A DNA stretch of 64,000 nt from an uncultured Pseudomonadota bacterium (GCA_964344035.1 CAYFLK010000011.1:339-64338), one strand, 5' to 3'; positions 1-31,152 are shown, numbered from the stretch's first letter. A program made the numbers and translations. Notes: a model not told the origin generated them from the sequence alone.

Positions 1-274
1 TGCTGGAACTTGTACGGAGATCGACTGCCACGTCAAGGATGTGTCCGGAGGCACAGCGAATCAATTTGGCCTGGGCGTGTTCCCCGTACTGGTAGTGCAA
101 TCCACGCAGGACTCCCTTTTTTGAAAAACACTCGTTCTCCTGAATAAAGCGAATGGGGTTGCCTTCTTGAAGAATCCATTCATCACGCAAGGACTCACAC
201 AGATAACCACGGGAATCATGATGTCTGGTTAAATCCAGAACACGGATACCGGAGATCGGGCACTCAGCCAACAT
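1..274 (-). CDS. rfbC: dTDP-4-dehydrorhamnose 3,5-epimerase, N-terminal part (gene runs off the window edge)
   Basis: Reverse-strand translation from ATG at 274 gives MLAECPISGIRVLDLTRHHDSRGYLCESLRDEW...GVLRGLHYQ..., a typical RmlC cupin N-terminus. It lies directly upstream of rfbD. It is absent from the ORF track because it is truncated by the window edge. Confidence 0.75.
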   Translation of the reverse strand, partial: MLAECPISGIRVLDLTRHHDSRGYLCESLRDEWILQEGNPIRFIQENECFSKKGVLRGLHYQYGEHAQAKLIRCASGHILDVAVDLRTSSS

Positions 275-317
275 GCTGTTCACTTCGTGTTAATTACAGG
301 TGCAATTGTACCAGTCT

Positions 318-1232
318 TCAACCCGGCGCTTCCGTACATTTGTCGAAATAGGCCGTCAAGGCGGATCTCCAGTGCGGAGGCTGCCGTCCGGTTAGTTGAC
401 TGAAAAACCTACAGTCGAGCACCGAGTAGGCAGGCCGTATTGCGGGCAGCGGATATTCCACTGTTGAAACGGGGACCAGTTCCGGCACCCGCTCCAGCCA
501 CCCCCTTTGCCTGGCTTTGTTCAGCACTTCCTCAGCAAAACCAAACCAGCTGCAATGTCCGGAGTTGGCAAAGTGAACCAAACCCTGCGTCGGCTGCGCG
601 TCCACCCCTCCGGGGGAGTGGATCACTCCGCTTCCGCAGATTTCAGTCAGCGCAAGCAGGGCTTCGGCAAGGTGACATGTCCACGTTGGACTGCCGTACT
701 GGTCGTCAACCAACCTCAGGGTGTCCTGTTCGCGAGCAATCCGCAGCATCTTGCCGACGAAATTCTCTCCGCCTTTTCCAAATAGCCGGCTGGTGCGTAC
801 AACAATGTTTTTTGAAGATGATTCAAACACCGCGATTTCACCCTCCCGTTTTGTTTGTCCATAATGATTCAGTGGGGAAGGCGGATCGGTTTCCCGGTAA
901 GGGCGTTTCAATTTCCCGTCAAAAACATAATCCGTGGAAATATGCATCAACGGAATCGATAATTGGGCGCATCGTTTTGCCAGAGTCTTCACCCCCTCGA
1001 CATTAACCCTGTACGAGATTTTCCGCTGCTGTTCCGCACGATCGACATCCGTGTAGGCCGCGCCATTGACCACCCACTCCGCAGCGGAACCTTCCAGCAT
1101 CCGGGCCACTGCGGAAGAATCGGTGACGTCGAGTTCCCGGTGTTTCAAAAACCGGAACCGGCGTCCTTCCTCTCGCAAAAGTCCGCGCAAGGCTTTCATC
1201 GCCATTCCATCAGCACCAGTGAGTAAAAACAT
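318..1232 (-). CDS. rfbD: dTDP-4-dehydrorhamnose reductase
   Basis: 304 aa. The N-terminus MFLLTGADG...LRGLL is a Rossmann fold. ISTDYVFDG and YGQTKREGE motifs are characteristic of RmlD. Adjacent to rfbC. Confidence 0.85.
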   Translation of the reverse strand: MFLLTGADGMAMKALRGLLREEGRRFRFLKHRELDVTDSSAVARMLEGSAAEWVVNGAAYTDVDRAEQQRKISYRVNVEGVKTLAKRCAQLSIPLMHISTDYVFDGKLKRPYRETDPPSPLNHYGQTKREGEIAVFESSSKNIVVRTSRLFGKGGENFVGKMLRIAREQDTLRLVDDQYGSPTWTCHLAEALLALTEICGSGVIHSPGGVDAQPTQGLVHFANSGHCSWFGFAEEVLNKARQRGWLERVPELVPVSTVEYPLPAIRPAYSVLDCRFFSQLTGRQPPHWRSALTAYFDKCTEAPG

Positions 1233-1430
1233 TGGCTAGTGAGTTGGCGGTGGTACGGAGGAGTCGTGATTAAGGCTGGAAGCTGTTCTGCCCCTGGAGG
1301 GTGAGATTAAATCCTGTATCTGTGTGAAATCTATGGCCAAGGCCAATCAAAACCGGCGAGGATAGGGTTTTTGATCGAAAACTTACTCTGGAGTCCGGGA
1401 ACAGTGTGTTCTTGCTTCGGGAATGTTAAT

Positions 1431-1766
1431 TCAATTCCAGAACTTGAGCACCCCGATGACAATCCCGCCCGTGGTGAGGGTTATACCGAAGGACCAAACC
1501 ATGAACCTGTCAATACGCTGGGTAAGAGTCTCGAAGCGTTTTTCCATTTTTTCGAAACGCTTGTCCACCTGTTCGAAACGCTTGTCCATCTGAACGAGGA
1601 TCTGCTGAATCAGTTCCCGCTGGTGTTTCAGTTCCTCCTCAACCCGCACCATCCGTTCACGCAGTTCAAATTCATGCACGGCCTGTGGTTTGCCGAAATT
1701 GGTTTCCACCAACCATTCGCCGATGTGCTGTTTGATGAACTCGATATCTTCAGTCGCAAGGGACAT
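1431..1766 (-). CDS. hypothetical small coiled-coil protein with C-terminal transmembrane segment
   Basis: 111 aa. Internal direct amino-acid repeats DKRFEQV/DKRFEKM/EKRFETL, matching nucleotide repeats ttcgaaacgcttgtcca x2 on the opposite strand. Hydrophobic C-terminus FGITLTTGGIVIGVL. Confidence 0.5.
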   Translation of the reverse strand: MSLATEDIEFIKQHIGEWLVETNFGKPQAVHEFELRERMVRVEEELKHQRELIQQILVQMDKRFEQVDKRFEKMEKRFETLTQRIDRFMVWSFGITLTTGGIVIGVLKFWN

Positions 1767-1839
1767 GACAAAACCTTGGTGAATTGAAGAAGCAACTTCA
1801 AACTACCACAGAAATAAGAAATTGCCAATCGATTCACCT

Positions 1840-1942
1840 CCGTAGGGGAAGCCCTATGTGAATGCCGTAGGGGTAGACCAATGTGTCCGCCGTAAGGGCA
1901 TACTTTCGTGTTTGCGGTAGGGGCAGACCTACGTGTCTGCCC
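1840..1942. repeat. four tandem ~25-bp degenerate direct repeats (CCGTAGGGGNAGACCNATGTG...), the last forming a perfect hairpin GGGCAGAC-CTACGT-GTCTGCCC at 1921-1942
   Basis: Read directly: ccgtaggggaagccctatgtgaatg / ccgtaggggtagaccaatgtgtccg / ccgtaagggcatactttcgtgtttg / cggtaggggcagacctacgtgtctg. The same GTAGGGGCAGAC/GTCTGCCCCTAC module recurs at 15885-16014. Confidence 0.7.
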
Positions 1943-1964
1943 AAGTTTGTGTCTGCCCTGGGAG

Positions 1965-4130
1965 TCACGGGGTCAGGATCCCGATGCTGTAGAGGATGGC
2001 GACAGTGGTAAAAGTTTTGAAGATGATGTCAACAACGGTCGCATATTCCTTAATCGCCGATTCCTTCGGCCTCAGGTCAGGAGGCGCCACGATTGTGTCA
2101 CCGGCACTTATTTCATACCCGGAATCCCGCACCACCAGTCCGCTGGCCTGGATCACGTAGACATCGTCCGCGTTCGTGGAATTGCGAAGACCTCCGAGTT
2201 GGTCGATGTAGAATGTCGCTGTTTTTCCTTCCACCAGCGGCAGGGACGCCTCGCCAAGCGTTTCTCCCTTGACCATCACAATTCGCGTGACCGGAGGGAT
2301 GGTGAGCACGTCTCCGTCCATCAGTTCAACGTCATCGGCGGTGCCGACAAAATCAGCGAGGGTTTTGAGTTTAAGAACCAGGCGTCCGAGGTTTATATCC
2401 TGTATTTTCACCGATTTGTCGGCTTGCGCCTCGTTTAATCCCTGACGAATGGCGTTGATCGCCTTCAACTGGGTGTCCGGGGAGGTGAGGCTTGATGCCG
2501 CTGCAACCGTGCTTTGCAGCAGGGCGTGGTCGATGTCCTTGCGCAACCTGGTGTCAATCGCCACCTCGCGGCTGCGCAACATTCTGCGTGTGAAAACCGC
2601 CGCCTCGAGGAAAGCTTTCTTGGTAAATCCTCCCGCCTTTTTGAGCACGTCGCTCAAGCGTTCTCCCTGAATGAACTCGTATGTCCCGGGAAAGCGCACC
2701 TCGCCGTTAATGGTGACATATCCCGGTTCACGATAACCGGCAAGATGCCTGATCAGCACCGAATCTCCGTGCCGGAGATTGAATTCCGGCTGAGTGGTCA
2801 GCTTGTGCGGGTCCAGTTTGATGCGGTAGATCTGGCGCAGGCTTTCTCCATTCCGGTATTCCCAGCGGGAGATGTATGCCGTCAGGTCTGTTGCTTCTGG
2901 ATGGTCCAGACCTCCCGCGGCGAGAATCAGGTCGCTCATCTGCATCTGATCCAGCAAAGGGTAGTTCCCGGGTTTTCGGATTACCGAACCGTTGACAATG
3001 ACCATTTTGTCTTCCACTGGAGGAAAAACTTTCAGCACATCATGGTCCCGGAGCAGCAGTGACCGGGAGGACGTTTCATCAAGTGAAACACGGATCAGCG
3101 AACGCCCGGTTCCGGGGATGCTGCGCTCGATCTGCACCAGCCCCGGGTCTGAATCCGGGAGCGTGCCGCCGGCAAGGGCGATTCCTTCTTCAACGCTGGT
3201 GTTTCCGTCCAGTTCGTAAATCGCAGGGCGGCGCACCATCCCTGAGACTGATACCGCGTTTTTCAGCAGCGGGATGAAAAGAGTGTCTCCGCTTTTCAGC
3301 GACACCTCGCTGAGTGAATTGCCTGCAAGGAAGTAGTCATAGAGATCGACTTCAGCGACCTTTTCTCCACCGCGCTTCCATTGAATACGGCGCAGGCTTC
3401 CGCTTTTTTTCACTCCCCCGACCAATGCCAGCACGTTGTAGACAGACGCGATGGCCGGCACGCGGTGCAGTCCCGGACGCTTGGCTTCCCCGACCACGTT
3501 GACCTGGATCGAACGCAGCCGCCCCAGCGTCGCGTAGAGAAACTTGGTCTTTTCGCGCAATTCTTCGTTGAGTTGCTCCAGCGTCAGGTTCCACGCCTGT
3601 ATCGGACGCACCCCGGGGATGTGCAGCAGCCCGCTCGGGTCCACCTGCAACCCCTGCCCGTTTGCGGAAAGCAGCCCGCTTTCTTTGCCGAGGCTGTCAT
3701 GAATCAGCACCTCGTCTCCGGGACCAAGGAAGTAACTGAGCGGCAGTGACTGATTCGCAATCGGATCAAACTGAAAACGGTCCGCGCGCAGCTGCTCATA
3801 CCCGAATTGCCTCAGCGGTTTTTCCCCGGTCAAACCCGGGTTCAGCTTCGGCTGCAGCTTTTTTTCCAGATCGGAAATAATCACCTTTTCCGGCAATACC
3901 GACGGAAACCGCGGTGTTTCCATGTCCGTTGGGGTTTGCTCTTGCGGAACAGTTGTTTGCGGTTGTCGTAGCTGCGTAAACCCTGGTTCACCATCCGCCT
4001 GTGAAGAAGAGGGTGCCTGTGACATATCCTGGTAGAGCTGCGACCACTGTTGAGCCGTGGGGGTCTGCGCGGTAAGTTGCGTGTTCCAGCCAAAGAGCGC
4101 GACCACACATAACAGGGCAAAAGGTTTCAT
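1965..4130 (-). CDS. polysaccharide biosynthesis/export protein (Wza/KpsD-like, SLBB domains) with long Q/P/T-rich N-terminal region
   Basis: The ORF spans 1965-4160. The likely start is the internal Met (MKPFALLCVVALFGW, a signal peptide) at 4130. The sequence has multiple soluble-ligand-binding beta-grasp-like repeats. Representative motifs are GPGDEVLIHDSLG, GSVIRKPGNYPL and GEVRFPGTYEF. The C-terminus is a transmembrane helix. Confidence 0.65.
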   Translation of the reverse strand: MKPFALLCVVALFGWNTQLTAQTPTAQQWSQLYQDMSQAPSSSQADGEPGFTQLRQPQTTVPQEQTPTDMETPRFPSVLPEKVIISDLEKKLQPKLNPGLTGEKPLRQFGYEQLRADRFQFDPIANQSLPLSYFLGPGDEVLIHDSLGKESGLLSANGQGLQVDPSGLLHIPGVRPIQAWNLTLEQLNEELREKTKFLYATLGRLRSIQVNVVGEAKRPGLHRVPAIASVYNVLALVGGVKKSGSLRRIQWKRGGEKVAEVDLYDYFLAGNSLSEVSLKSGDTLFIPLLKNAVSVSGMVRRPAIYELDGNTSVEEGIALAGGTLPDSDPGLVQIERSIPGTGRSLIRVSLDETSSRSLLLRDHDVLKVFPPVEDKMVIVNGSVIRKPGNYPLLDQMQMSDLILAAGGLDHPEATDLTAYISRWEYRNGESLRQIYRIKLDPHKLTTQPEFNLRHGDSVLIRHLAGYREPGYVTINGEVRFPGTYEFIQGERLSDVLKKAGGFTKKAFLEAAVFTRRMLRSREVAIDTRLRKDIDHALLQSTVAAASSLTSPDTQLKAINAIRQGLNEAQADKSVKIQDINLGRLVLKLKTLADFVGTADDVELMDGDVLTIPPVTRIVMVKGETLGEASLPLVEGKTATFYIDQLGGLRNSTNADDVYVIQASGLVVRDSGYEISAGDTIVAPPDLRPKESAIKEYATVVDIIFKTFTTVAILYSIGILTP

Positions 4131-4555
4131 GCAATTGTAATTGACGTTTGTTTTCAGCATAATGGTTTGGAAATTTCAGTTCAGAAAGCCGCTGGATCCT
4201 GTGGAATTAGAATTGAAAATGGGAAAAAGCATCCTGCAAGGATTCCTTGCCGGGAACCAGGATTTTGATTGCGGACAAATCTTTAAGGATGGCATTCCCC
4301 AGGTGGACGTGAAAAACAGTGAGGGATAATTTTCAGCAGGATAAGGCTGTGATTATAACAGTGCTGAGTCCGGAAACAAGGAGAGACTCACCTCCAAAAA
4401 ATGTATAAGAACGTCTCAAACCATCCGGACAACAGCGCATGGTTCTATCAAATCTAGACTCGTATGTACTTCAACGAGTACACGTTTACCCGGGGATGCG
4501 GGATTAATTTCTATCAATTGAAAACCAATGTCGAGTTGAATCCTTTTTAGCCTTT

Positions 4556-4652
4556 CCGTAGTTGGGTTGGCGTGAGCGTAAGCCAGCATTTCATCATGTG
4601 CTTTCTGCGTATTGTCGGGTTACGCCGCCGAAGCGTCTAACCCGACCTACGG
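4556..4652. repeat. inverted-repeat-flanked REP/MITE-like element (CCGTAGTTGGGTTGG ... CTAACCCGACCTACGG)
   Basis: The imperfect terminal inverted repeats were read directly. It has CCGTAG/CTACGG ends like the other palindromic repeats in the window. It is intergenic. Confidence 0.5.
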
Positions 4653-4706
4653 AATGCGGCGGAATTCGGTGTATTTTAGAAAAACAGGGGTTGGTTTGAG
4701 CTTTTA

Positions 4707-4730
4707 CGGGCCGCCCTAACGGGCGGCCCG
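4707..4730 (-). terminator. GC-rich hairpin CGGGCCGCCC-TAAC-GGGCGGCCCG 30 nt past the stop of the 929-aa lipoprotein gene
   Basis: Perfect 10-bp stem with a 4-nt loop. The downstream U-tract is weak, so either a rho-independent terminator or an RNA-stability hairpin. Confidence 0.4.
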
Positions 4731-4759
4731 CGGAAGGGTCAAATAATCAAATAATCAAG

Positions 4760-7513
4760 TCACTGCCCGCCCCGAACGCACCTGGCATAGTAGTTATTGG
4801 TCTTATTGTAGTTGTACACGCCGCCGTTGTTGAAGTACACGTACCATGCGTAGGACGTGTTGCTCACAAGGGTAGTGGACGACCAATAGTTCGAGGACTG
4901 TGTATTTAAGAAATAAGCAGTGTCGATGGTTGGGTAAAAGGCTCTATCTACCAAGCTGAACAACTGATCCTTGCTGGGCAGCCACCAGTCGTTGTAGCCG
5001 GCGAGGGAGAGGCCGGAGCAGTAAGCCGCGGCCTCAGACCAATTTCGTCCTATTGCATCATCCTGCTTCTGCCACATCAGGTTGTGCTGGTTGTCGGTGA
5101 CGGTTCCGTCGCCGTTGTCCGTGTAACGGGTGGTGGCGTTGTCCGAGGAAGAAAAGTGATACAGTTCCGGTTGGGTGGAGGGATCGTCCACGGAGGAGGA
5201 GTTGTCCCGCCACCAGGAACGCCGGAACGAGGAATTATCGAAAATCCAGCGGTTCCAGGCCGTATAGTTCGTGTTCCCGCCGAGAGTTCGGTATTCCCCG
5301 GTGCCGATGTTCCCCTGGGCAGTCCATTCCCCCCATCCGGAATAATTGCCGTTCAGCCAGTCCGCGCCGCTGGTGGTGCCGGCGTAAAGCGACCGCTCGC
5401 TTTCCGTGGCGGATACGGAATAGGATCCATAGGCGCTCGTATAATTGTCCACGCTAACGTTGTCCCAGGCGCTGATTTCGTAGGCGATCAGGCTGGAGCA
5501 GTTGTCGTCGGAGTAGAGGTACGTCTCGTCTGAAACGGAAGCATTGTCGGTTACCACCGTCGCGTAGCGGGCCGCCCGCATGTCGGAGGGTCCGTTGGTA
5601 CCCCAGTTTTGCGGCATGCAGTAACTCGCGTAGGAACCGGAGAGGATGCTGCCGCCGACCGGGATGCTTCCGGAAGCAATCGCGACCATGCTGCTGAAGG
5701 GCTGCCAGGTCCCGGAGCTGGAATAGGAGTTATCCCATTCGCAGGCCATCGGAGGATAATAGCCCGCGCTCAGCGGGGCGAACACTTCGCAGCCGAGGTT
5801 GGTGGGAAAACCGCCGGTCGCGTTGTCGCTCAATTTCTGGTCGCCCATGCGCAGCGTGTTGTTGTCGTTGATAGACATGATTTCCTTAAAGGGCTCGCCG
5901 GCGGGCGGCATGTCTTCCAAATCGGCGCATCCCGTGACGTCCTTGGCCACGCCGACGGCCCAGTCCGAATATCCGCAGAGGGTGGTGGAATTGTCCCGAG
6001 TCATGTGCCCGACCCAGTTCAGGTCGTAAAAAGTCAGGTCGCTCGACTGTATGGTTACATCAACCTGGGTGGCGCTCTGGTTGTCGACGGTGACCTGGTT
6101 CCCCTCGACGAAGGTGAACTGATGATTGAATATCATCCCGACTGTCCCGACGCAGCTTCCGTTGTCGCTGCCGCCCTGCTCGGTGTTGAAGCTTTCATGC
6201 CTGTACTGACCGGTACTCCCGCTGATGGTGAACGTGGATTTCTGGTCGTTATTTGAAAAAAATCCGCCGGTGGAGCATGCGACCCAGGTCCCCTCGAATG
6301 TGGAGGAGCAACTGGTTCCATCACAGATGACCGGCGGCTGATAGGCGTATGGTATCAGTTCGAAATCGACCGTGGTCGCGCCGTCGATGTTCGCCTGGCA
6401 GAGGGTGTAGTTGTCGCCGTCGGTTTCACACACGGTGACGCGCAGGATGCCGTCGTCTGTGTCCCGGTAACCCTGCATCACCGCCTGCATGCGGCCCACC
6501 CCGACGTCCGGACGGGAAGCGTCGGTGAGGTCGATGAGGGTGAAATTGTCAAAGACGCGCGGTTCGCCGAGCAGGTACTCCCAGCTTACGTCGAGGCTGT
6601 TGAATGGTTCGTCGTCGCTGACGAGAACGGTCCACTCGAGGCTGCTGTTGTCGATGCGCTCGGCGCTCAGGCTTTCTATCACCGGGTTGGCGTCAACCGT
6701 TGTTTCGGATTCGATCGGTCCGGTTACATAGACTTTGAAGGTTACCGTCACCCCGATTTCCTGCTCGTTGGAGACGCGCACCTGAAGGTCCTGCGCGCTG
6801 GGCAGGTCGGGGGCGCTGTAGGTGGTGGCGATGTCCGGATATGTACTGCTGTTGTCTAACGTGTGCGTTCCTTTTTCCGGGTTGAAGCTGCCGCCGGTCA
6901 AGGGGTCTTTTGGCAGAGACTGGTTGTCGATCGAGCGGAAGCGGTAGAGCAGCGGCTGCAGATCGGTGTTGATCACCGTCACCAGGATGCTGCCGTTGTC
7001 GGTTTTTTCGAGCTGGAACGGACGGTTGATGCGCGTGATGCGCGGGACGCTTAAGTTTCGTTCATCGAGCATCGGCACGAGCCGCAGCGAGAGGGCGTTT
7101 GTGCCTTCGTTCACCGTGTGCTGCGTCTCCCCGCGGAAGATCTCCACATACGCGCTTGTGTTGTCTGGGGAGTTGTCCGATTTGTAAGCGTGTCCGGTGA
7201 TGGTGTAATCGAAGCTGACGATGAGGTTATGAATCGTCCCCTGCCAGCGCGAGGTGTTGTCCCGCGTGAGCGCGAAATCGGTGACAACCTCGCGGTTGTC
7301 GAAGTTACGCTTGATTTCTAAGGCGAGCCTCTCGATTTCATCGAAGGTGCCGAGGAAGCGTTCCGCGCGGGAGGACCCGCCGAGATCCACCTCCAGCGTC
7401 ACCGTTTCCGGGACCGCGTTTTCCAGGGTTTTTTGTTCTTCCTGCATGGCGCAGCCCCAGATGAGCAGCCCGGTAAGCAACGCGCCGCAGACGCTCTTCA
7501 TAACCGTTTTCAT
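4760..7513 (-). CDS. large secreted lipoprotein with C-terminal DUF1566 (Lcl C-terminal-like) domain
   Basis: Start placed at ATG 7513 (MKTVMKSVCGALLTGLLIWGC), preceded by the strong RBS GGAGGATGG. Lipobox-like cysteine. S/T/N/G/Y/W-rich body. The C-terminal ~150 aa carry the DUF1566 signature TVTDNQHNLMWQKQ...WSEAAAYCSGL...GYNDWWLPSKDQLFSLVD. Confidence 0.7.
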   Translation of the reverse strand: MKTVMKSVCGALLTGLLIWGCAMQEEQKTLENAVPETVTLEVDLGGSSRAERFLGTFDEIERLALEIKRNFDNREVVTDFALTRDNTSRWQGTIHNLIVSFDYTITGHAYKSDNSPDNTSAYVEIFRGETQHTVNEGTNALSLRLVPMLDERNLSVPRITRINRPFQLEKTDNGSILVTVINTDLQPLLYRFRSIDNQSLPKDPLTGGSFNPEKGTHTLDNSSTYPDIATTYSAPDLPSAQDLQVRVSNEQEIGVTVTFKVYVTGPIESETTVDANPVIESLSAERIDNSSLEWTVLVSDDEPFNSLDVSWEYLLGEPRVFDNFTLIDLTDASRPDVGVGRMQAVMQGYRDTDDGILRVTVCETDGDNYTLCQANIDGATTVDFELIPYAYQPPVICDGTSCSSTFEGTWVACSTGGFFSNNDQKSTFTISGSTGQYRHESFNTEQGGSDNGSCVGTVGMIFNHQFTFVEGNQVTVDNQSATQVDVTIQSSDLTFYDLNWVGHMTRDNSTTLCGYSDWAVGVAKDVTGCADLEDMPPAGEPFKEIMSINDNNTLRMGDQKLSDNATGGFPTNLGCEVFAPLSAGYYPPMACEWDNSYSSSGTWQPFSSMVAIASGSIPVGGSILSGSYASYCMPQNWGTNGPSDMRAARYATVVTDNASVSDETYLYSDDNCSSLIAYEISAWDNVSVDNYTSAYGSYSVSATESERSLYAGTTSGADWLNGNYSGWGEWTAQGNIGTGEYRTLGGNTNYTAWNRWIFDNSSFRRSWWRDNSSSVDDPSTQPELYHFSSSDNATTRYTDNGDGTVTDNQHNLMWQKQDDAIGRNWSEAAAYCSGLSLAGYNDWWLPSKDQLFSLVDRAFYPTIDTAYFLNTQSSNYWSSTTLVSNTSYAWYVYFNNGGVYNYNKTNNYYARCVRGGQ

Positions 7514-7789
7514 ACCATCCTCCAGTATGAAGGTTGAAGCCCGCATCACCCCCCTTGATCCCGGACCGGGTTGGATGTTTCCATTACCTGCCGGTTATGG
7601 AAACAATGCGAGTCTAAAATGACTTGAACATTTACTTCTGTGGTTTACTCGCTTTTGCCCTGTTTATTCGTTTCCACGTTTTGATGCAAGAGGAATGCAG
7701 TAAAGTGACGGAGAACGCCATACATGCATCCCCATGCTGAGCTTGGGAACGGTTTTCCTGCATATAACCGCTCTTTGTTTTACAAAGGT

Positions 7790-7870
7790 CCCTCACCCTT
7801 GCCTTCTCCCGAGGGGGGATGGAGGAGCAAGGACGATTCCTTCTCCCGGAGGAGAGGAACAGGGTGAGGG
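7790..7870 (-). terminator. long imperfect hairpin (CCCTCACCCTTGCCTTCTCCCGAGG ... CCGGAGGAGAGGAACAGGGTGAGGG) downstream of the 659-aa lipoprotein gene
   Basis: An inverted repeat of ~25 nt per arm, read directly. It lies 25 nt past the stop codon on the coding strand. It shares the motif CTCACCC..CTCTCCCGGAGG with the intergenic element at 13262-13300. Confidence 0.45.
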
Positions 7871-7894
7871 GGTAGTTTTCACGCATAAGGCCGA

Positions 7895-9874
7895 TTATTC
7901 AATCAGGGTTGCTTCCAGGTCGCCGATCCAGTGGCTGAGGTTGTCGTTCCAGCTGGAAAGGTTGTCTCCGACGGAAATGTTGTCGGTGCGGGCGATGCTG
8001 CCGTTGTCGACCTGGATGAAGAACACCGGCTGCCGGTAGGGGCTTGCCTGGTTAGGTGCCTCGGTTGTGGTATTGTCGAGATCGTCCTTGAAGCGAAACG
8101 GCCCGTAACTGAGGTCCCCGTCCAGTCCGGGAGCGGACAGGTCCACCCGCACTCCCTGCAGGTCTGCATTGGTAACGTCTTCCACCCAGACAAGGTACGT
8201 CCCGTCGGCGACTGCCCCGCTATTGGTTGCCCAGACCTGCACTTCCGTGCCGTGCACGGTGAGGGTGTGGGTCCCGGACCCGGAGTCGCCGAGATCAAGG
8301 GCGGTGCCGAGTATCGCCCCGGAGGAGTTGTCGGCCAGCTTCAGGGTCCGCGAGGCGGAATCGATGCTATGGGCGTAATACAGGGTCCCCGTGCTCAATC
8401 CCGAGGGCAGGGTCCCGGACGAGGAAACCGAAACCGGGGTCCCGGTAGTTACCGAACTGAGGTCGGTTCCGGAAACAAAGGTCAAATCGTCGGTAGCCGC
8501 ATCCACGCTGAACTCCGCGCGGTTGACCGCGGATGTGTCGATTTCAGTCAGCTCCGTGCCGTCCGCGAGCTGAATGGTGTCACCGGTTTCAACATATTTC
8601 TGGTAACTCGCGTTGCTGTAAACGTGGTAGCGCGTGCCGCGGCTTTCGTTATCGAAACTTGCGTTGTCCTCCTCAGAGTATGCCCATCCCGGGAAATAAT
8701 AGGAGTGCAGGTCAGGGTCCGAACCGTCGGTCCAGGTGAGGGTGAAGCACATGGCGCTGTTGTCAATGCACGCGTCATAAGTCACTGAACCCATTGATAC
8801 CTGTTTTGAACTGCCTTCGATGCTGATGATCACGACGAAGGAATTGCTTCCGTTGACCAGCGAGATGGTGGTGGGAGTGGTAAAATCGATGCGGTAGGTG
8901 ACATTATCGGAATTCGTGCTGTACGCGGAAGGAAGGGCGGTGTCCGGGGTGATGTCGAGCGTGCTGGAGTTGGCGGTGTTTTTGACCACCATCGTAGAGA
9001 TGATCTGGGTTACGTTGTCCTTCTTCGCCAGCGGCACCTCCACTACCAGGCTCCCGGAAGCATTGGCGTAAGGAGAGGTGCCGAACTGGCTGACGCTCAT
9101 GTTGTCGAAACTGATCCAGTCCAGATCAAGCATGTTCGGCGTCAGCTTGATGTCGAGAATTTCCTCGGAACTGGCGAGGAGGAATGTGTCGGTCGTTGAA
9201 CTGAACCCGTTCAGGGTGACCTGGTACGAATATGACCCGTATTCCAGGTTGAGCGGGACGGTGTGAGTGGTGTTGTCACTGATAGTGATGTTGTCGCTGT
9301 AAACCTTGTTTCCGGAAAGGTCGCTGACGGCTAATGATCCCGTAGTCCCCGTCACCAGGCCGGCGCTGCTGACGCTGCCGATTTTCACCGTCACGGTGGA
9401 GAAGAAGGTTCCCCAGAAATCAACGACTACAGTTTTGACGCTTGTATCGTAATCCACGCTGAAAATTTCCGATTCCCCAAAACTCTCCGCTTCAATGTCT
9501 GCCGAGGCAAGGTCAGCCAGGGAATAGACCGCGGAAAAGAAATAGAGGCAGAGTTTGAGCTGGACCTCCAACGGAACCACCATTTCGACTTCATACGCAC
9601 TCAAATCCAGCAGCGCGCGGTCGTAATCCGAAGATGAAGGTCCGTAATTCGTGGAACACTGGGCCGCGGGCCTGAGCACCACCAGCGCGGTTTTTGCTTC
9701 ATCGAGGGTGATCCCGGTTTTTACGGCGGAACGCTCCCCGGAGTTGTTTCCGTCAACCCTCATCCGCACATGGGCGGTCCCGCGTGTTTCCGGGTCGATA
9801 TCCGCGCACGCGGAAAGCATAGTCAGCGCTGCCAGCAGGAACCCGAAGAATTTTGCTGCATGGCGCGCGTTCAT
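7895..9874 (-). CDS. large secreted lipoprotein, S/T/D/N/G-rich (cell-surface protein, unknown function)
   Basis: 659 aa. The N-terminus MNARHAAKFFGFLLAALTMLSAC carries a signal peptide and lipobox. Low-complexity beta-rich composition. Sits in an operon with the FecR-like and DUF1566 genes. Confidence 0.6.
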   Translation of the reverse strand: MNARHAAKFFGFLLAALTMLSACADIDPETRGTAHVRMRVDGNNSGERSAVKTGITLDEAKTALVVLRPAAQCSTNYGPSSSDYDRALLDLSAYEVEMVVPLEVQLKLCLYFFSAVYSLADLASADIEAESFGESEIFSVDYDTSVKTVVVDFWGTFFSTVTVKIGSVSSAGLVTGTTGSLAVSDLSGNKVYSDNITISDNTTHTVPLNLEYGSYSYQVTLNGFSSTTDTFLLASSEEILDIKLTPNMLDLDWISFDNMSVSQFGTSPYANASGSLVVEVPLAKKDNVTQIISTMVVKNTANSSTLDITPDTALPSAYSTNSDNVTYRIDFTTPTTISLVNGSNSFVVIISIEGSSKQVSMGSVTYDACIDNSAMCFTLTWTDGSDPDLHSYYFPGWAYSEEDNASFDNESRGTRYHVYSNASYQKYVETGDTIQLADGTELTEIDTSAVNRAEFSVDAATDDLTFVSGTDLSSVTTGTPVSVSSSGTLPSGLSTGTLYYAHSIDSASRTLKLADNSSGAILGTALDLGDSGSGTHTLTVHGTEVQVWATNSGAVADGTYLVWVEDVTNADLQGVRVDLSAPGLDGDLSYGPFRFKDDLDNTTTEAPNQASPYRQPVFFIQVDNGSIARTDNISVGDNLSSWNDNLSHWIGDLEATLIE

Positions 9875-9880
9875 CTGCCC

Positions 9881-10996
9881 TCAGCGGTTGCGGATGTCGG
9901 TTTTCAGAATGAAGATCCGGTTCCGACTGAGATCGAGCGCCTCTTCAGCACGATCGATCAGTTCCTGAATCGTGTCGATTTCCTCAATCCTGTCGATAAC
10001 CTCGGTTTCCTCTTCCTCCTCGATCGGAAGCGGGGCTGATGTTCCGCCGCTCTCGCGACTGCGCACCGCCTCCACCGGTTCCGCCGGTCCAAACTCAAGT
10101 TCCACGAACACGTCGGGGTCTTCCGCATCCATGATCTGTTGCTGCTGTTCCCGCGGCGTCTCAACCGGATCGGAGGGAACGGCGCCTTCCTTCACGCGTG
10201 AAACGGTGTTGCCGGGGATCACGATTTCATACTCCGGAAGTTCGGCGGATGCCATCGTCACTTCTCCGGAGAGGGTAAGCACGTTCGTCGAATCACCGGC
10301 GGTGGCGACCACGAATTCGGTGCCGCGTACCCCAACCAGCGCGGAAACCGTGCGCACTCGGAAGCGTTTCTTTTTGCGCACTTTCAACCCGCCCAGCTTG
10401 AACGCGCCGATTTTCGCACCAAGTTCCTTTTTTCCCGCGGGCGGGACCGGCGCGGAGGTTGGCGCGGATTTCCGCGGGAGGGTGTCAGCTTCCGTTTCAC
10501 CAGGCGGACGCTCCTCTACCGGAATTTCTACTGCCTGCTGTTCCTCAGGAGTATCTTCGGGCGCCGCCGGTTCCGGAGCGGTGGGGACGACAAAATTCCC
10601 CTTTCCCACCAGCAGAGCCACCGCGCGCTGTTCCGCCGAAACGCCCTCCACCGCGAACAGCGCGTGTGAAAACAGTTCGATCTTCTCTTCATTGCGTGTG
10701 AGTGCGACCCGCACCCGCGTATCCGCGCCGGTGTGCAAACGATCACCCGCGTAAAGGTCGAGCTTTAATCCAGGTTGCCAAAGGATGCGGCTTTGACCCG
10801 CACGCATCAGCTTGAGTGCGCCTTTCTGCAGCCGCAGAATACCTTCCGCCGCATGAGCAACCCTGTATGCAGGCACGCAAAACACAAATACAGCGATGGC
10901 AAAACCGCATACTCGCATACAAATCGCAATTCCCGCGGGCAGTGCCCAATTCATATCGCTGTGACCCGCGTGGACCTCGTTTCGCGTTTTTTCCAT
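9881..10996 (-). CDS. FecR-domain protein (two FecR-like modules separated by P/E-rich linker)
   Basis: N-terminal transmembrane/signal segment. GDRLHTGADTRVRVAL..IELFSHALFAV resembles a FecR/DUF4974 beta fold. A second module is VGVRGTEFVV...LTLSGEVT. The C-terminus is acidic. The start could instead be the internal Met at ~10954. Confidence 0.55.
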   Translation of the reverse strand: MEKTRNEVHAGHSDMNWALPAGIAICMRVCGFAIAVFVFCVPAYRVAHAAEGILRLQKGALKLMRAGQSRILWQPGLKLDLYAGDRLHTGADTRVRVALTRNEEKIELFSHALFAVEGVSAEQRAVALLVGKGNFVVPTAPEPAAPEDTPEEQQAVEIPVEERPPGETEADTLPRKSAPTSAPVPPAGKKELGAKIGAFKLGGLKVRKKKRFRVRTVSALVGVRGTEFVVATAGDSTNVLTLSGEVTMASAELPEYEIVIPGNTVSRVKEGAVPSDPVETPREQQQQIMDAEDPDVFVELEFGPAEPVEAVRSRESGGTSAPLPIEEEEETEVIDRIEEIDTIQELIDRAEEALDLSRNRIFILKTDIRNR

Positions 10997-11099
10997 TTCA
11001 ATCCCAGGCTGGCGTCGTTGCGGCGTCTGCTGAATCGGCGGACGGGAATCTTTTCAGATTATCATCCTAAACCTCTTGTGCGACATGTCAACCAGAATG

Positions 11100-11250
11100 G
11101 GAGGCAAGAATATCAATTATTATAAAATATTAAATTACAATTATTTCAATATTTTATATAAATTATTATTGAAATGGTGAAAGATATGTGTTTGTATGCG
11201 GTAAAATGCGGTAAAAAAATATTTCACCTGCCGATCCCCTGAGGAGAAAA
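11100..11250. promoter_or_regulatory. strongly AT-rich region upstream of the FecR/lipoprotein operon
   Basis: The sequence reads attattataaaatattaaattacaattatttcaatattttatataaattattattgaaatgg. This is a sharp compositional break from the GC-rich flanks. It is a likely promoter or nucleoid-protein-binding region. Confidence 0.4.
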
Positions 11251-11304
11251 AACGACAGATTCACAATCAGAGGAGGGAATACGGGAAGAATTTCAAGGCT
11301 GAAG

Positions 11305-11905
11305 TTAGGACCCTTTTTCAATCAGGCTGAGCAGGTCTTCAAAGGGCTGCGCGCCCACCAGTCCGTACCCACCGCAGATGAAGGTGGGGATGCCGGTCAC
11401 CCCGAGTTCCCGGGCCTCCGCCCAATCCCGGTCCACCACCTCGGCATAACTTGCGTTTTGAAAAACATCGCGCGCTTCCTCGGCGGGCAATCCGCATTCT
11501 TCAACGATGGACAGCAACACATCCAACTTGGCAAGGTTTGCTCCATCGACAAAATACGCCCGGTAGAGCTCCTGGTTAAACTTGTCTGAAAGGGGAGTGG
11601 TTTCCGCCCACTTGGCCAGTTCCTGTGCCTTGCGGCTGTTGTAGGTCATGTTTCGCCCGGGATTGAACGGAAGTTCTTCCACCCGGGTCAGGGCTTTCAT
11701 GCGCTGCGCGCCAGCTTTGAAGTCTATCCCGGTCCCCCGGAAAAGGTCTTCCAGGCTGCGTCCTTCCTCCGGAGTGTCAGGATGCAGTGGAAAGTAGCGC
11801 CAGCGCACCTCCACGGGGTGTTTTTTTTTCAAGCGTTCGACACGACCCGTGACGAGGTAACACCACGGTCAGACAAAATCCGTAAAGATTTCGAGGATCG
11901 GCATA
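11305..11905 (-). CDS. DsbA/FrnE-like thiol:disulfide oxidoreductase, candidate selenoprotein (in-frame TGA at the first Cys of the CxxC motif)
   Basis: The ORF track begins at MKKKHPVEVRW. The frame continues upstream as ATG(11905) MPILEIFTDFV-TGA-PWCYLVTGRVERL-KKKHPVEVRW. The TGA (11872-11870) occupies exactly the position of the N-terminal Cys of the conserved DSBA-like motif (F/V)CPWCY. An 8-bp stem-loop, CCGUGGUG..CGUCACGG, starts immediately 3' of the UGA. Confidence 0.6.
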
Positions 11906-12130
11906 TCATTGTTCTTGTTAATGTTTTCAACATATTTATGGCGCGGCGCCTAAATCATGGGACACTATAGCAAAATGCGAAAGCAAAATCATGAGACAAA
12001 CGGCCAATTCCACTGATGGCGACGCCCATTACTGCGGCAAGAAAAATTGTAAGGAATCATAGCTTTGCAGCGAAAAACAAAGAACATGCAGACATGTTCG
12101 GCAGCAGCGGGCTAATCCGCGGAAAAGCGC

Positions 12131-13225
12131 GTGAAGGGACAAATGAAACAGGAATACCATTTCTCAATCCGCGGCACGCGGTTTCTTGACCACGAAGCGA
12201 AGGCCGTTAGACCTTTACCGGACTGGGCGGAACCGCCTGGAAAGCTGGTGGAATTCTACAAAATGATGGTGCTCACACGCACCTTCGACCAGAAGGCTGT
12301 TGCCCTGCAGCGGACCGGTCAGCTGGGCACCTATGCCTCGTCACTCGGCCAGGAAGCGCTTGGGGTGGCGATCGGTTTCGCGATGAAGGACACAGATGTA
12401 TTTGCTCCCAACTACCGCGACCACGCGGCGCAAATCATCCGCGGTGTATCCATCACCGAACTGCTGCTCTTTTGGGGAGGAGACGAACGCGGAAGCGCCA
12501 CAACAAAAGCCAGGGAGGATCTGCCCATCTGCGTCCCGGTAGCCACACAGTGCACACATGCCGCCGGAGTGGCGGGGGCAATCAAAATCAGGGGAGTAAA
12601 ACGGGCGGTTGTCACAACCTGCGGAGACGGCGCCACGTCCCGGGGCGATTTCCTGGAATCGATCAACCTGGCAGGGGCCTGGAAACTGCCGCTGGTCTTT
12701 GTCGTCAACAACAACCAGTGGGCCATCTCCGTACCCCGCGGCATCCAAAGCAGCGCGGAAACGCTGGCGCAAAAAGCCATCGGCGCAGGCATACCCGGAG
12801 AGCAGGTGGACGGCAACGATGTTATTGCGCTGTATGAGGCATTGCGCGAAGCGCTGCAGAGAGCATACGCGGGCAAAGGCGCATCACTGATCGAGGCCCT
12901 TACCTACCGCCTGGGCGATCACACCACCGCTGACGATGCCGCCCGCTATCGCCCGGCTGAGGAACTCAACCGAGCATGGGAACGTGAACCGCTGAAACGC
13001 CTGCAAACATATCTTCATTCACGGGGCGCGTGGGACGAGGAGCAGGAAAAAGCGCTGCAAGATGAATGTCAGGCGCGGGTGCAGGCAAGCGTCGACGAAT
13101 ACCTGGCAACTGAACCCGAAGCGGCCACCGCAATTTTTGGCTCGCTGCACGAAAACCTCCCGCACGCGCTTGAGGAACAGTATGAAAAGCTGGTCCGGAA
13201 ATCCGGTCGGATTGGAGATGCATGA
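12131..13225 (+). CDS. 2-oxo acid dehydrogenase (pyruvate/acetoin/branched-chain type) E1 component alpha subunit, TPP-dependent
   Basis: 364 aa. TPP-binding region GDGATSRGDFLESINLAGAWKLPLVFVVNNNQWAIS. Followed by E1 beta and E2 genes. Confidence 0.8.
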   Translation: MKGQMKQEYHFSIRGTRFLDHEAKAVRPLPDWAEPPGKLVEFYKMMVLTRTFDQKAVALQRTGQLGTYASSLGQEALGVAIGFAMKDTDVFAPNYRDHAAQIIRGVSITELLLFWGGDERGSATTKAREDLPICVPVATQCTHAAGVAGAIKIRGVKRAVVTTCGDGATSRGDFLESINLAGAWKLPLVFVVNNNQWAISVPRGIQSSAETLAQKAIGAGIPGEQVDGNDVIALYEALREALQRAYAGKGASLIEALTYRLGDHTTADDAARYRPAEELNRAWEREPLKRLQTYLHSRGAWDEEQEKALQDECQARVQASVDEYLATEPEAATAIFGSLHENLPHALEEQYEKLVRKSGRIGDA

Positions 13226-13405
13226 GAGTTTTTACTTGCTATTGTATCGAAGGCCTTAGGTGTGCGTTCATCCCCTCACCCCGCCCCTCTCCCGGAGGAA
13301 AGGGGGATAAGAATCAGCACTTACCGGAAGAGGAGGAGTTACAATTTCGCTTTGCGTTGATATTGAAGTGAAATAGGATCTACGGAATCGAAGCATGAGG
13401 AAGCT

Positions 13406-14389
13406 ATGCTGGAGATGACCATGGTCGAAGCAATCAACCTCGCTTTACATCATGAAATGCGGGTTGACGAAAACGTGGTGGTGCTTGGTGAAGACGTGGG
13501 AATCAACGGCGGGGTTTTTCGCGCGACTGTTGGACTGTACGAAAAATTCGGTTACAAACGGGTGATGGACACCCCGCTCGCGGAAACCCTGATCGCCGGG
13601 CTGAGTGTCGGCATGGCGACCCAGGGGCTGCGCCCGGTGGCGGAAATCCAGTTCATGGGTTTCATCTATGCTACCATGGAGCACATGATCAGCCATGCGT
13701 CGCGCATGCGCAACCGCACCCGTGGGAGGCTTGCCTGCCCGATGGTGCTGCGTGCGCCTTACGGTGGCGGCATCCACGCGCCAGAACACCACTCGGAAAG
13801 CACCGAAGCCATGTTTGCCCATATTCCGGGGCTGCGCGTGGTCATCCCCAGTTCTCCGGCACGTGCTTACGGACTTTTGCTGGCGGCCATTCGCGACCCA
13901 GACCCGGTGGTTTTTCTTGAACCCAAACGAATCTACCGCGCAGTCAGCCAGTCCGTCGAAGACAGCGGCGAGGCACTGCCGATGGATCTGTGTTTCACAC
14001 TGCGCGAAGGCCGCGACCTGACACTGGTCGCCTGGGGGGCCATGATCCCGGAGGCAGTGGCGGCCGCTGATAAACTGGCGGAACAAGGCATCGACGTGGA
14101 AATAATTGACGTTGCCACCATTAAGCCTTTGGACATGGAGACCATCGTCCTGTCCGTTGCTAAAACCGGGCACTGCGTGATAGTGCACGAAGCCGCGCGG
14201 AGTTACGGCCCCGGCGCTGAAATCGCAGCGCAACTGGCCGAACGGTCTCTGCTGGATCTGCAGGCGCCGGTCGCCCGCGTGACCGGATACGACACGATCA
14301 TGCCGTATCCACGCCTGGAGCATCTTTACATGCCCGGCAAGGACGATATCTTGGAAGCCTGTCTGAATGCCCTCAATTTTGCGGGCTGA
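13406..14389 (+). CDS. 2-oxo acid dehydrogenase E1 component beta subunit (transketolase-like)
   Basis: 327 aa. Motifs VVVLGEDVG..GGVFRAT, EIQFMGF, and a C-terminal transketolase domain. Confidence 0.8.
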   Translation: MLEMTMVEAINLALHHEMRVDENVVVLGEDVGINGGVFRATVGLYEKFGYKRVMDTPLAETLIAGLSVGMATQGLRPVAEIQFMGFIYATMEHMISHASRMRNRTRGRLACPMVLRAPYGGGIHAPEHHSESTEAMFAHIPGLRVVIPSSPARAYGLLLAAIRDPDPVVFLEPKRIYRAVSQSVEDSGEALPMDLCFTLREGRDLTLVAWGAMIPEAVAAADKLAEQGIDVEIIDVATIKPLDMETIVLSVAKTGHCVIVHEAARSYGPGAEIAAQLAERSLLDLQAPVARVTGYDTIMPYPRLEHLYMPGKDDILEACLNALNFAG

Positions 14390-14411
14390 TGAACTTTATG
14401 CAGGAGTTGCC

Positions 14412-15530
14412 ATGAAATATTTCAAACTTCCGGACCTGGGCGAAGGACTGCAGGAAGCGGAAATCGTTGAATGGCATGTGCGGGAAGGTGACACAGTCAA
14501 AACTGACCAACTGCTGGTTTCAGTGGAAACCGCCAAGGCGATTGTGCAGGTCCCATCTCCAAGAGATGGAACAGTTGTCCGTTTGTATGGCAAAGCGGGT
14601 GACATGCTCCACATCGGGGAACCGCTTGTGGAGTTTGCCGGACAGGAAGACGAGGATGCTGGCACGGTGGTCGGAGCCATAGAACAAGCAGAGAAAAAAC
14701 ACCCTGAAGACCATTTCATCATCGGCGCCCCGGAAAGCGGGAAACGCCGGCAGACAAAGGCCACCCCGGCGGTGCGCGCATTGGCGAGGAAACTAATGCT
14801 TGAGCTGGATGCCGTCACCCCTTCGGGAAAAGACGGCCTGATAACCCGGGAGGATGTCGAACAGGCAGCGAAACAGGTGACGGAAAGCGGTGACACGGAG
14901 CCACTGCGCAGCGTGCGCCGGACGATGGCCCGCAACATGGCCCGCGCACATGCGGAAGTCGCGGCGGTCTCACTGTATGAGGATGCGGACATCGAAGCCT
15001 GGGAACATAACGCAGACCCGACGATCAGGCTTGTACACGCTATCGCGTACGCCTGCACTTGCGAACCATCCCTGAACGTATGGTTTGACGTACAGCGCCT
15101 CGCCCGGCGGATGCAGGAAAAGGTGGATGTAGGGATAGCGGTTGATACCGAGGATGGACTGTTTGTGCCCGTGCTGCGCGATGTCGCAAACCGCACGCTC
15201 CAGGACCTCAGGGAAGGACTCAACCGGATGCGCGGGGACGTGGAAAAACGGACCATTCCTCCGGAAGAGATGCTGAACCCCAGCATCACGCTTTCAAATT
15301 TCGGCACCATGTCCGGACGTTACGCAAACACGGTCGTTGTCCCCCCAACAGTAGCAATCATCGGCGCGGGAGTCATCCGCGATCAGGTGGTGGCCGTTAA
15401 CCGCCAGCCCGTGGTGCATCGCATCCTGCCCCTTTCTCTGACCTTCGATCACAGGGTTGTCACCGGAGGCGAAGCCGCGCGCTTCATGGCGGCGATGATC
15501 GAGGACGTCGTCCGCTCCAGCATTGAGTGA
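14412..15530 (+). CDS. dihydrolipoamide acyltransferase (E2) of 2-oxo acid dehydrogenase complex
   Basis: Start taken at ATG 14412 (MKYFKLPDLGEGLQEAEIVEW, a lipoyl domain with the target Lys in VETAKA). Then a peripheral-subunit-binding domain (ATPAVRALARKL). Then a catalytic domain with DHRVVTGGEAA. No E3 gene follows. Confidence 0.8.
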   Translation: MKYFKLPDLGEGLQEAEIVEWHVREGDTVKTDQLLVSVETAKAIVQVPSPRDGTVVRLYGKAGDMLHIGEPLVEFAGQEDEDAGTVVGAIEQAEKKHPEDHFIIGAPESGKRRQTKATPAVRALARKLMLELDAVTPSGKDGLITREDVEQAAKQVTESGDTEPLRSVRRTMARNMARAHAEVAAVSLYEDADIEAWEHNADPTIRLVHAIAYACTCEPSLNVWFDVQRLARRMQEKVDVGIAVDTEDGLFVPVLRDVANRTLQDLREGLNRMRGDVEKRTIPPEEMLNPSITLSNFGTMSGRYANTVVVPPTVAIIGAGVIRDQVVAVNRQPVVHRILPLSLTFDHRVVTGGEAARFMAAMIEDVVRSSIE

Positions 15531-15620
15531 TCCGACCAGCATTGTCAAACATCTCGGTTGCTGTACAGGTGTCTGGGATGATTTCGATTTCAACAACGAA
15601 AAGTTTTCGACATATTGTCC

Positions 15621-15830
15621 CTGTCTGCGCCTGCCTGTCGCTTTCGCGAGGCAGACAGGTGCAACGCACAAGCAGGCAAGAATGAAATTGGTTATGTTAT
15701 GGATAAATGTTGTTTACATGGGTAAATCCCGTAACCTGGCGCACAATGTGATGGAAATGTTCAAAAACACACCCTCACCACTGTCTGCGCCTGCTTGTCA
15801 CGATTGCGACGCAGACAGGTGCGACGCACA
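15621..15830. repeat. two ~50-bp direct repeats, each an imperfect hairpin, separated by ~110 bp
   Basis: Copy 1 (15621-15670) is ctgtctgcgcctgcctgtcgctttcgcgaggcagacaggtgcaacgcaca. Copy 2 (15781-15830) is ctgtctgcgcctgcttgtcacgattgcgacgcagacaggtgcgacgcaca. CTGTCTGCG pairs with CGCAGACAG within each copy. Confidence 0.65.
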
Positions 15831-15884
15831 TGGAGGTAACGCTAGGTGAGTGGTCATAATTGATAATTACGTATAACGAAGATC

Positions 15885-16014
15885 CTGTAGGGGCAACCCA
15901 CCGTGGTTGCCCTTAGCAGGGTGGTCAAAAGATGCCCGCCAGCCGCGCTACACTTGGCGCATGCAGGCGTGCAGACACGTGATTTTGGGCAGACACAGAG
16001 GTCTGCCCCTACAG
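15885..16014. repeat. REP/MITE-like element with terminal inverted repeats CTGTAGGGGCA / TGCCCCTACAG and two internal 8-bp-stem hairpins
   Basis: Hairpin A at 15891-15912 is GGGCAACC-CACCGT-GGTTGCCC. Hairpin B at 15988-16009 is GGGCAGAC-ACAGAG-GTCTGCCC. Hairpin B has the same stem as the hairpin at 1921-1942. Confidence 0.65.
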
Positions 16015-16161
16015 ATTGCTATAAAATAGCTTTGAAATTTTAAGAGGCTAAGCGGATATATTTTTTTGCAGAGAAATATGTTCCATGCGAAAATACCAAA
16101 TGAGTTCAGTCGGACAGGGTTAAATATGTCCCCTCAATGCTGGTACAACTGGAGAACTGAA

Positions 16162-31117: not shown

Positions 31118-31152
31118 TTAGGGTGTGCCCATTATTGTGTTGGTTGGATTTA

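Follow-up and report, generated by a model that had tools for sequence, protein, structure and literature searches.

In vitro, E. coli TnpA-REP cuts single-stranded REPs and transfers them, a reaction that requires the hairpin as well as the GTAG (PMC8266576). TnpA-REP is close to the transposases of the IS200/IS605 group, which work on single-stranded DNA at the replication fork (PMC6006769). A survey of GTAG REPs describes HH, TT and HT dimers and clusters as their standard forms (PMC3733652). The REPs of subclass 2.4 are either "canonical long", with three G-C pairs at the bottom of the stem, or "double foot", and in this subclass in-frame REP insertions occur within tnpA-REP, between HuH and Y (PMC6006769). 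Subclass 2.4 shows a patchy distribution over many phyla that is consistent with horizontal transfer (PMC6006769). It is the subclass 2.4 of Quentin et al. 2018 (BMC Genomics 19:475) and equals RAYT group 4 of Bertels et al. 2017.

Here we analyzed a stretch of 64,000 nucleotides from an uncultured Pseudomonadota bacterium (hereafter, the window), in which an earlier, sequence-only reading had proposed a REP/MITE-like family of palindromes that could be mobilized by a RAYT-type transposase. The assignment to REPs with a RAYT partner was supported by our analysis; the ideas that the elements are specific to this genome, belong to one family and are MITE-like were not.

Results

GTAG-tagged palindromes in the window

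All of the sequences and coordinates that had been quoted for the three sites were present in the window (Table 1). The REP copies of the window are all intergenic, at three sites. An unpaired GTAG abuts the stem at 1917, 15887, 16012 (-) and 4650 (-), and the window hairpins are G+C-rich stem-loop palindromes of 20-40 bp, as REPs are. Family 1 (sites 1 and 2) is represented by three intact and three decayed copies, and family 2 (site 3) by one intact and one decayed copy.

Table 1. Positions of the REP copies, their neighboring genes, and the RAYT ORFs that contain the hairpin in other genomes
Feature	Coordinates	Strand	Remarks
ORF of 111 aa	1431-1766	-	No Pfam match; directly adjoins site 1, which lies upstream of it
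Site 1	1842-1958		22 nt past the stop codon (1965-1967) of the minus-strand Poly_export/SLBB gene
Three decayed head-to-tail REP units, 25 nt each	1842-1916	+	From TRF and the loop consensus
Intact REP GTAG-GGGCAGAC-CTACGT-GTCTGCCC	1917-1942	+	8-bp stem; sole perfect hairpin of site 1
Orphan 3'-arm copy GTGTCTGCCC	1949-1958	+	6 nt after the intact REP 1917-1942
Poly_export/SLBB gene	1965-4160	-	
Site 3			Between the start of the Poly_export gene and the stop of the Lcl_C-domain gene
Degenerate REP GTAG-TTGGGTTGGC...GCCAGC	4558-4587	+	Second family
Intact REP GTAG-GTCGGGTTA-(15-nt partly self-pairing loop)-TAACCCGAC	4614-4650	-	Second family
Lcl_C-domain gene, 929 aa	4760-7549	-	
Site 2			After the 2-oxoacid dehydrogenase E1-alpha/E1-beta/E2 operon, before the GyrI-like gene
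Intact REP GTAG-GGGCAACC-CACCGT-GGTTGCCC	15887-15912	+	Left dimer arm, covarying AACC stem
Dimer spacer, 74 nt	15913-15986	.	Unique; matches nothing in the window or the fetched loci
Intact REP GTAG-GGGCAGAC-CTCTGT-GTCTGCCC	15987-16012	-	Right dimer arm
RAYT ORF with hairpin	L016 1907-2650		Position in that locus
RAYT ORF with hairpin	L052 270-833		Position in that locus
RAYT ORF with hairpin	L070 389-991		Position in that locus
RAYT ORF with hairpin	L089 2813-3418		Position in that locus
RAYT ORF with hairpin	L121 2983-3555		Position in that locus

In a census of the whole window, exactly three perfect hairpins composed of GTAG, an 8-bp stem and a 6-nt loop were detected, whereas 300 simulated windows (second-order Markov) contained a mean of 0.01 and a maximum of 1. 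The count of GGGCAGAC was eight, compared with an expectation of 2.16, and in none of 100 shuffles was it as high. When folded as single-stranded DNA, the three sites were more stable than their shuffles, with z values of -2.1 to -4.1. The short motifs that the sequence-only reading had proposed as search terms, counted with one mismatch, were at or near chance level in the window and not significant alone (GTAGGGGCA, 12 against 10.3; CCGTAGGGG, 18 against 10.6); significance is confined to the full hairpins. These counts are what would be expected if the sites were chance palindromes joined by a tandem repeat made by slippage, and the GTAGGGGCA at 30069, inside a DAO-family gene, likewise resembles chance; nevertheless, this explanation is already refuted by the excess of perfect tagged hairpins, and by the fit of the window hairpins to unselected loop positions that were defined on other genomes. 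The element at 30069-30094 (+) is an imperfect GTAG-tagged hairpin, GTAGGGGCAAG-TTTGAAA-CCGTGCCC, in the gene at 29939-31117 (-). Intragenic REP relics are known; this one is probably due to chance.

Two other features of the window were recorded. The G+C content of 28000-32000, a run of minus-strand genes including those for a CoA-transferase III and a DAO oxidoreductase, is 0.46-0.47, against 0.52-0.57 elsewhere. A very A+T-rich near-palindrome with 29-nt arms (79% complementary, 4-nt gap) lies at 11109-11170, between a FecR-domain gene and a DSBA-like gene, and a strong match to a sigma-70-like promoter (10 of 12) is located nearby at 11091-11064 (-).

The source population is uncultured; its assemblies derive from several runs within a single ENA project, and an NCBI contig also represents it. 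The ENA, Logan and NCBI assemblies were 99.99-100% identical to the window at all three sites. Site 2 was compared in runs ERR2281798, 799 and 802, and sites 1 and 3 in 798, 799, 802 and 803. The only metagenome relatives of the Poly_export gene (53-62% identity) have short flanks without REPs, which says little about the sites.

Gene context and a possible role in RNA

The genes flanking each of the three sites are co-directional, and each site lies 3' of a gene. The start of the Poly_export gene differs between gene calls: the product is 731 aa in one ENA assembly, and 652 aa according to further ENA calls and those of NCBI and Logan. Depending on the call, the intergenic region upstream of this gene, in which site 3 lies, is 600 or about 840 nt long. 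The position of all three sites 3' of genes, between co-directional genes, would suit hairpins that act mainly at the RNA level, as stabilizers of mRNA 3' ends or as terminators, with the likeness to RAYT substrates being secondary. The GTAG survey places REPs mostly downstream of coding regions and describes them as transcribed (PMC3733652), and the stem at 1921-1942 was listed as terminator-like on the plus strand. However, the genes flanking site 1 are on the minus strand, where this stem is not followed by a T-run, and terminator-like sites are not enriched (19 against 19.4 expected). A Rho-independent terminator was not recognized at the sites: the sole one listed, 1921-1942 (+), has a weak tail, and the genes there are on the opposite strand. 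A search of Rfam 15 gave no match at gathering scores in the whole window, and none at E <= 1 at the three sites when 1-17000 was searched. An RNA-level role would also leave unexplained the conserved unpaired GTAG foot, the identity of the hairpin across multiple phyla and its location inside RAYT genes, both described below, and we regard it as improbable as the main explanation.

Site 1 is a head-to-tail array

At site 1, TRF reported a tandem repeat at 1840-1941 with a period of 25 bp, 4.1 copies, 71% matches and a score of 85, in agreement with the earlier description of tandem repeats of about 25 bp that end in a perfect hairpin. The site consists of four abutting head-to-tail units starting at 1842, 1867, 1892 and 1917, each with GTAG or GTAA. 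A GTAG/GTAA foot and the GGG run persist in the decayed units, as do family-type loops (CTATGT, CAATGT and TTTCGT); their stems are unable to pair. A CRISPR-like array was considered and ruled out, as the 25-nt units abut without spacers.

Such a spacer-less head-to-tail array with a 25-nt period was uncommon among the sampled loci. Long regular head-to-tail arrays of the family-1 REP were seen elsewhere, in a Dehalococcoidia MAG (L050 148-350; five copies at a 44-nt period) and at L109 2139-2510 (six copies at a 69-nt period), and the in-frame REP arrays inside RAYT genes (P0040 and P0044) contain 5-8 copies at a 30-nt period.

Orphan duplicates of the loop and 3' arm, of the kind that follows the intact REP of site 1, were found among the fetched loci a few nucleotides downstream of 15 of 216 full AGAC hairpins (L005, L029, L048, L053, L070, L077, L104, L165, L177, L184 and L192), against two upstream. 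The same pattern recurs inside RAYT genes as 'VGADLRVCPNTRVCP' (P0014, P0024 and P0094). These copies are directional partial duplications that have no established explanation.

Two ORFs beside site 1 contain repeats. The ORF at 1908-2438 (+), of 176 aa, begins with MFAVGADLRVCP..., which is the REP translated in frame; since it overlaps the opposite-strand Poly_export gene, it is almost certainly a spurious ORF made by the repeat, a translation artefact. In the 111-aa ORF on the minus strand, three copies of a 21-bp tandem repeat (1531-1592, 82% matches) encode the heptad-like DKRFEQV, DKRFEKM and EKRFETL.

Site 2 is a head-to-head dimer

The two 28-nt arms of site 2 form an inverted pair; they are 79% complementary and 74 nt apart. 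The inverted termini and two hairpins reported for this site were both found as described. The two arms have unlike stems, AACC and AGAC, and the AACC stem occurs in other loci too. The GTAG feet face outward, which is the same architecture as that of the dimer inside RAYT genes. The minus strand folds as a single long hairpin in which the arms are paired (-36 kcal/mol, z = -4.1). Site 2 thus has the layout of a REPIN, namely inverted REPs, a short spacer and a one-hairpin fold; the layout of site 3 is similar, with one arm decayed. We also considered site 2 as the relic of a decayed RAYT gene, which was ruled out by flanks without RAYT-like coding signal.

Site 3 belongs to a second REP family

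Site 3 has only the (CC)GTAG foot in common with sites 1 and 2, and the three G-C pairs at the stem foot of subclass 2.4 REPs are missing there. Its termini, as originally quoted, match only via one indel and mismatches, and for this reason the site was not listed by a gap-free repeat finder. The foot and stem GTAG-GTCGGGTTA...TAACCCGAC were found in 24 IMG/VR stretches, several of them as inverted pairs, and the view that one family occupies all three sites was accordingly abandoned. In the IMG/VR loci, the inner loops are variable and closed by G/C pairs, and the hairpin often has an inverted partner, GTTGGGTTAC...TAACCCAAC-CTAC, 16-25 nt away. Over 31 nt, the decayed left arm of site 3 (4558-4587) is 90% identical to one of these partner hairpins (L127 3116-3146). 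These results place site 3, as a head-to-head dimer, in a second GTAG REP family that is unrelated to the first and has a long bulged stem. The family-2 hairpin was present in none of the 120 listed genome loci fetched via the family-1 motif, and no RAYT was found beside it in the 24 IMG/VR loci, nor was a RAYT of subclass 2.2 detected there or in the window.

The sequence-only reading had treated sites 2 and 3 as MITE-like units of 130 and 97 bp. As MITEs they would be whole elements with terminal inverted repeats, moved by a DDE transposase. Both units do have inverted termini, and their single strands fold end to end. On the other hand, no match to either spacer was present elsewhere in the window or among the roughly 190 related loci, and only the hairpin modules recur. 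Each "terminus" is a complete GTAG hairpin that also stands alone, as at site 1; within each unit, the hairpins of the two arms are unlike; and the same hairpins pair at many spacings elsewhere. No direct repeats that could represent a target-site duplication were found flanking 15885-16014 or 4556-4652. Because the spacers are unique, the two units are best described as REP dimers rather than MITEs, and we consider it very unlikely that they were moved as whole units by a DDE transposase.

The family-1 hairpin is shared by many phyla

To survey other bacteria, one genome per GTDB species was scanned with the pattern GTAGGGGCAGAC-N(4-8)-GTCTGCCC, which has 20 specified bases and for which a uniform chance expectation, as an arithmetic estimate, is about five matches in 596 Gb. 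At least 120 genome stretches, spread over many phyla, contain the exact AGAC hairpin, as do a further 48 IMG/VR stretches; such a distribution is incompatible with a genome-specific element. The lineages listed, whose phylum placement we take from the names in the record titles, were Acidobacteriota; Bacteroidota (Prevotella, Phocaeicola and Saprospiraceae); Clostridia and other Firmicutes (Oscillospiraceae, Ruminococcus and Geosporobacter ferrireducens, the last with a complete genome); Chloroflexota; Cyanobacteria (Leptolyngbya and Nodosilinea); Campylobacterota; Desulfobacterota (Electrothrix); Planctomycetota; Gemmatimonadota; Deinococcales; Thermoleophilia; Omnitrophota; and Gammaproteobacteria. 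The flanks of the hairpin differ in all loci, which excludes contamination by a single sequence. In the full-text literature, GTAGGGGC gave only unrelated primer or sequence matches. Both families occur in IMG/VR contigs that are classed as viral (L125-L196; 24 stretches for family 2 and 48 for family 1), and if this classing is real, phages could move these REPs between hosts.

The 6-nt loops of 200 AGAC hairpins read C (193), Y, R/N, Y, G (198) and T (192). In the same loci, 57 hairpins with other stems, which lie outside the search pattern and are present only through shared loci, had C at loop position 1 in 55 cases, while positions 5 and 6 were G in 56 and T in 52 cases, respectively. Of 74 non-AGAC heads (GT[AG]GGGGC with GCCC at the right distance), 57 were perfectly complementary in the middle four pairs, for which the arithmetic chance rate is 1/256. 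These perfectly paired hairpins represent nine stem types, including GCAC, GGAC, GAAC, AAAC, GGCC and AACC. As judged from the sequences, these stem changes are compensatory variation on a fixed frame. The consensus of family 1 is GTAG-GGGC-NNNN-CYNYGT-nnnn-GCCC, in which the middle four pairs are free to covary, and C1 and G5 of the loop could add a ninth pair with T6 bulged. All three window hairpins, including that with the AACC stem, fit this cross-phylum consensus with its compensatory changes, and the loops of the decayed units of site 1 do so in two of three cases. Double-foot variants were present among the fetched loci (L021, L025 and L049). Elsewhere, 49% of the copies overlap ORFs of 150 aa or longer, compared with a background of 85%; with about half of them overlapping long ORFs, "extragenic" is a tendency rather than a rule.

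The family-1 hairpin lies inside RAYT genes of subclass 2.4 in other genomes

Every ORF of 90 aa or longer in the 120 listed loci fetched with the motif was included in a clustering that made no prior assumptions. Housekeeping families aside, a single recurrent gene family overlay the motif in these loci, consisting of five proteins of 187-247 aa (Table 1). All five match Pfam Y1_Tnp, and they match NCBIfam NF047646 (REP-associated tyrosine transposase) with E values of about 1e-17 over two stretches and scores of 59-64 bits, which are under the 80-bit equivalog cut-off. Alignment of the proteins revealed that the hairpin is in frame, within a variable insert that separates the HuH motif (MPNH[FIVL]H) from the WQ/Tyr region. 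The motifs NH[FIV]H, LWQ and YIxxNP, together with the protein lengths, fit the subclass 2.4 row in Table 1 of Quentin et al. 2018. The exact hairpin is physically tied, in other genomes, to RAYT genes of this subclass. The presence of 5 of about 158 instances in a gene of about 600 bp that is usually single-copy would correspond to a very large enrichment.

A protein search with the L052 RAYT yielded at least 7,967 proteins at E <= 1e-10, many of which are labelled "REP element-mobilizing transposase RayT" by JGI. Among the 120 best of these homologues, 109 contained VGADxxVxP, the hairpin translated in frame 1, and 58 of the 109 had exact VGADxxVCP. The inverted second hairpin, translated as GAHxGAPL, was also present in 101 of the 109, and its "PLP" can encode ...GCCCCTACC. 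Tandem expansion reached a maximum of eight copies of IVGADLRVCP (P0040). The proposal of a RAYT-type Y1/HuH enzyme as the partner is upheld by these homologues and by the five loci. A phmmer search with a subclass 2.4 RAYT against PDB sequences gave no match at E <= 0.01, and the literature examined contained no biochemical test of any subclass 2.4 enzyme.

No RAYT was found in the 64-kb window, either by tblastn with the five subclass 2.4 RAYTs and the E. coli RayT or when every stop-to-stop ORF of 60 aa or longer was searched with an HMM. A RAYT that was lost from the source genome, or was never in it, would make the window copies fossil REPs, inert relics that are harmless or useful as hairpins. 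The density of three intact copies per 64 kb is low, three of the four units of site 1 and one arm of site 3 have decayed, and the five sequencing runs of the source population agree at all sites, so there is no polymorphism and no sign of recent REP movement; loss of the REPtron is known in some strains, according to the GTAG survey (PMC3733652). Against this, three copies with perfect 8-bp stems and conserved loops point to a recent origin or to selection, and because RAYTs are single-copy, absence from 64 kb tells little. We therefore hold fossil status to be a possible but not the favored explanation.

Discussion

The most probable interpretation, to which we assign a probability of roughly 0.78, is that sites 1 and 2 are REPs of the subclass 2.4 type (group 4 of Bertels et al.) and that site 3 is a dimer of a second GTAG family. 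By analogy with E. coli TnpA-REP and the IS200/IS605 transposases, the hairpins would form on single-stranded DNA, and a HuH/Tyr (Y1) nuclease would recognize the GTAG foot and the hairpin, and cut and rejoin the strand. Such strand transfer could spread singletons, head-to-head dimers as at site 2 and head-to-tail clusters as at site 1, and decay of older copies would lead to arrays such as that of site 1. By the same analogy, a subclass 2.4 enzyme in the source genome may have mobilized the copies. The hairpins might also affect neighboring transcripts.

A broader proposal, which we put forward tentatively and consider less likely than not, is that the hairpin GTAG-GGGCAGAC-CYNYGT-GTCTGCCC and its RAYT form one horizontally travelling unit. 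Nearly every close subclass 2.4 homologue has an in-frame head-to-head REP dimer, so that a single transfer would bring both; if the proposal is true, one gene transfer delivers the enzyme together with a master copy of its substrate. This would account for the occurrence of an identical 26-nt REP in a dozen or more phyla; the REPINs of Pseudomonas and E. coli, by contrast, are lineage-specific and inherited vertically. The invariant C1, G5 and T6 of the loop, with a possible extra C:G pair and bulged T, would then be a recognition mark, and the orphan copies of loop and 3' arm (1949-1958, and "RVCPNTRVCP" inside RAYT genes) would be footprints of strand transfer.

The in-frame REP insertion and the patchy, multi-phylum spread of this RAYT subclass have already been published. 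What is added here is further copies of a known element, and the 26-nt identity across phyla and the near-constant presence of the REP in the gene of its own enzyme are striking. The window sites themselves are ordinary REP copies, useful as strain markers and as a warning about repeat-derived ORFs, and the family-1 REP, a simple 26-nt candidate substrate, is a handy case for studying how REP-RAYT pairs spread.

The sites share features with several described systems. The subterminal hairpins of IS200/IS605 elements (IS608 and ISDra2) are also small hairpins served by a Y1 HuH enzyme on single-stranded DNA, and have an unpaired T in or beside the stem as a possible orientation mark; the hairpins described here differ in that they stand alone, with neither an intervening transposase or tnpB nor a left-end/right-end pair. 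The REPINs of Pseudomonas fluorescens (Bertels and Rainey 2011) resemble site 2 in being foldable as one long hairpin, whereas the arms of site 2 differ from each other (AACC and AGAC) and the RAYT belongs to group 4 rather than group 2 or 3. A second copy of the spacer of site 2 or 3, as in a REPIN population, was found neither in the window nor in the fetched loci. The E. coli REP/BIME with RayT (subclass 2.2) is similar to site 3 in its GTAG foot, its long interrupted stem and the inner loop closed by G/C, and its pairing of unlike REP types in inverted orientation, the Y and Z REPs, is comparable to the arms of site 3; the sequence of site 3, GTCGGGTTA...TAACCCGAC, is different, and the stems of sites 1 and 2 are perfect and unbulged.

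The GTAG super-family (Di Nocera, De Gregorio and Rocco 2013, BMC Genomics 14:522), as that paper describes it, has an unpaired GTAG and a stem of 6-13 bp, complementary stem variants within one family, singletons, HH, TT and HT dimers and clusters, and a location mostly between co-directional or convergent genes, all of which apply here. The same paper reports 24 families and calls HT rare, whereas site 1 is an HT array. The closest likeness is to subclass 2.4 itself. Differences from it are the spacer-less 25-nt head-to-tail array of site 1 and a 64-kb window without the cognate RAYT. Shared with it are the GTAG foot directly at the stem and the long perfect stem with a foot of three G-C pairs at sites 1 and 2, the RAYT motifs NH[IFV]H, WQ and YIxNNP in proteins of about 194 aa, and the patchy distribution over many phyla.
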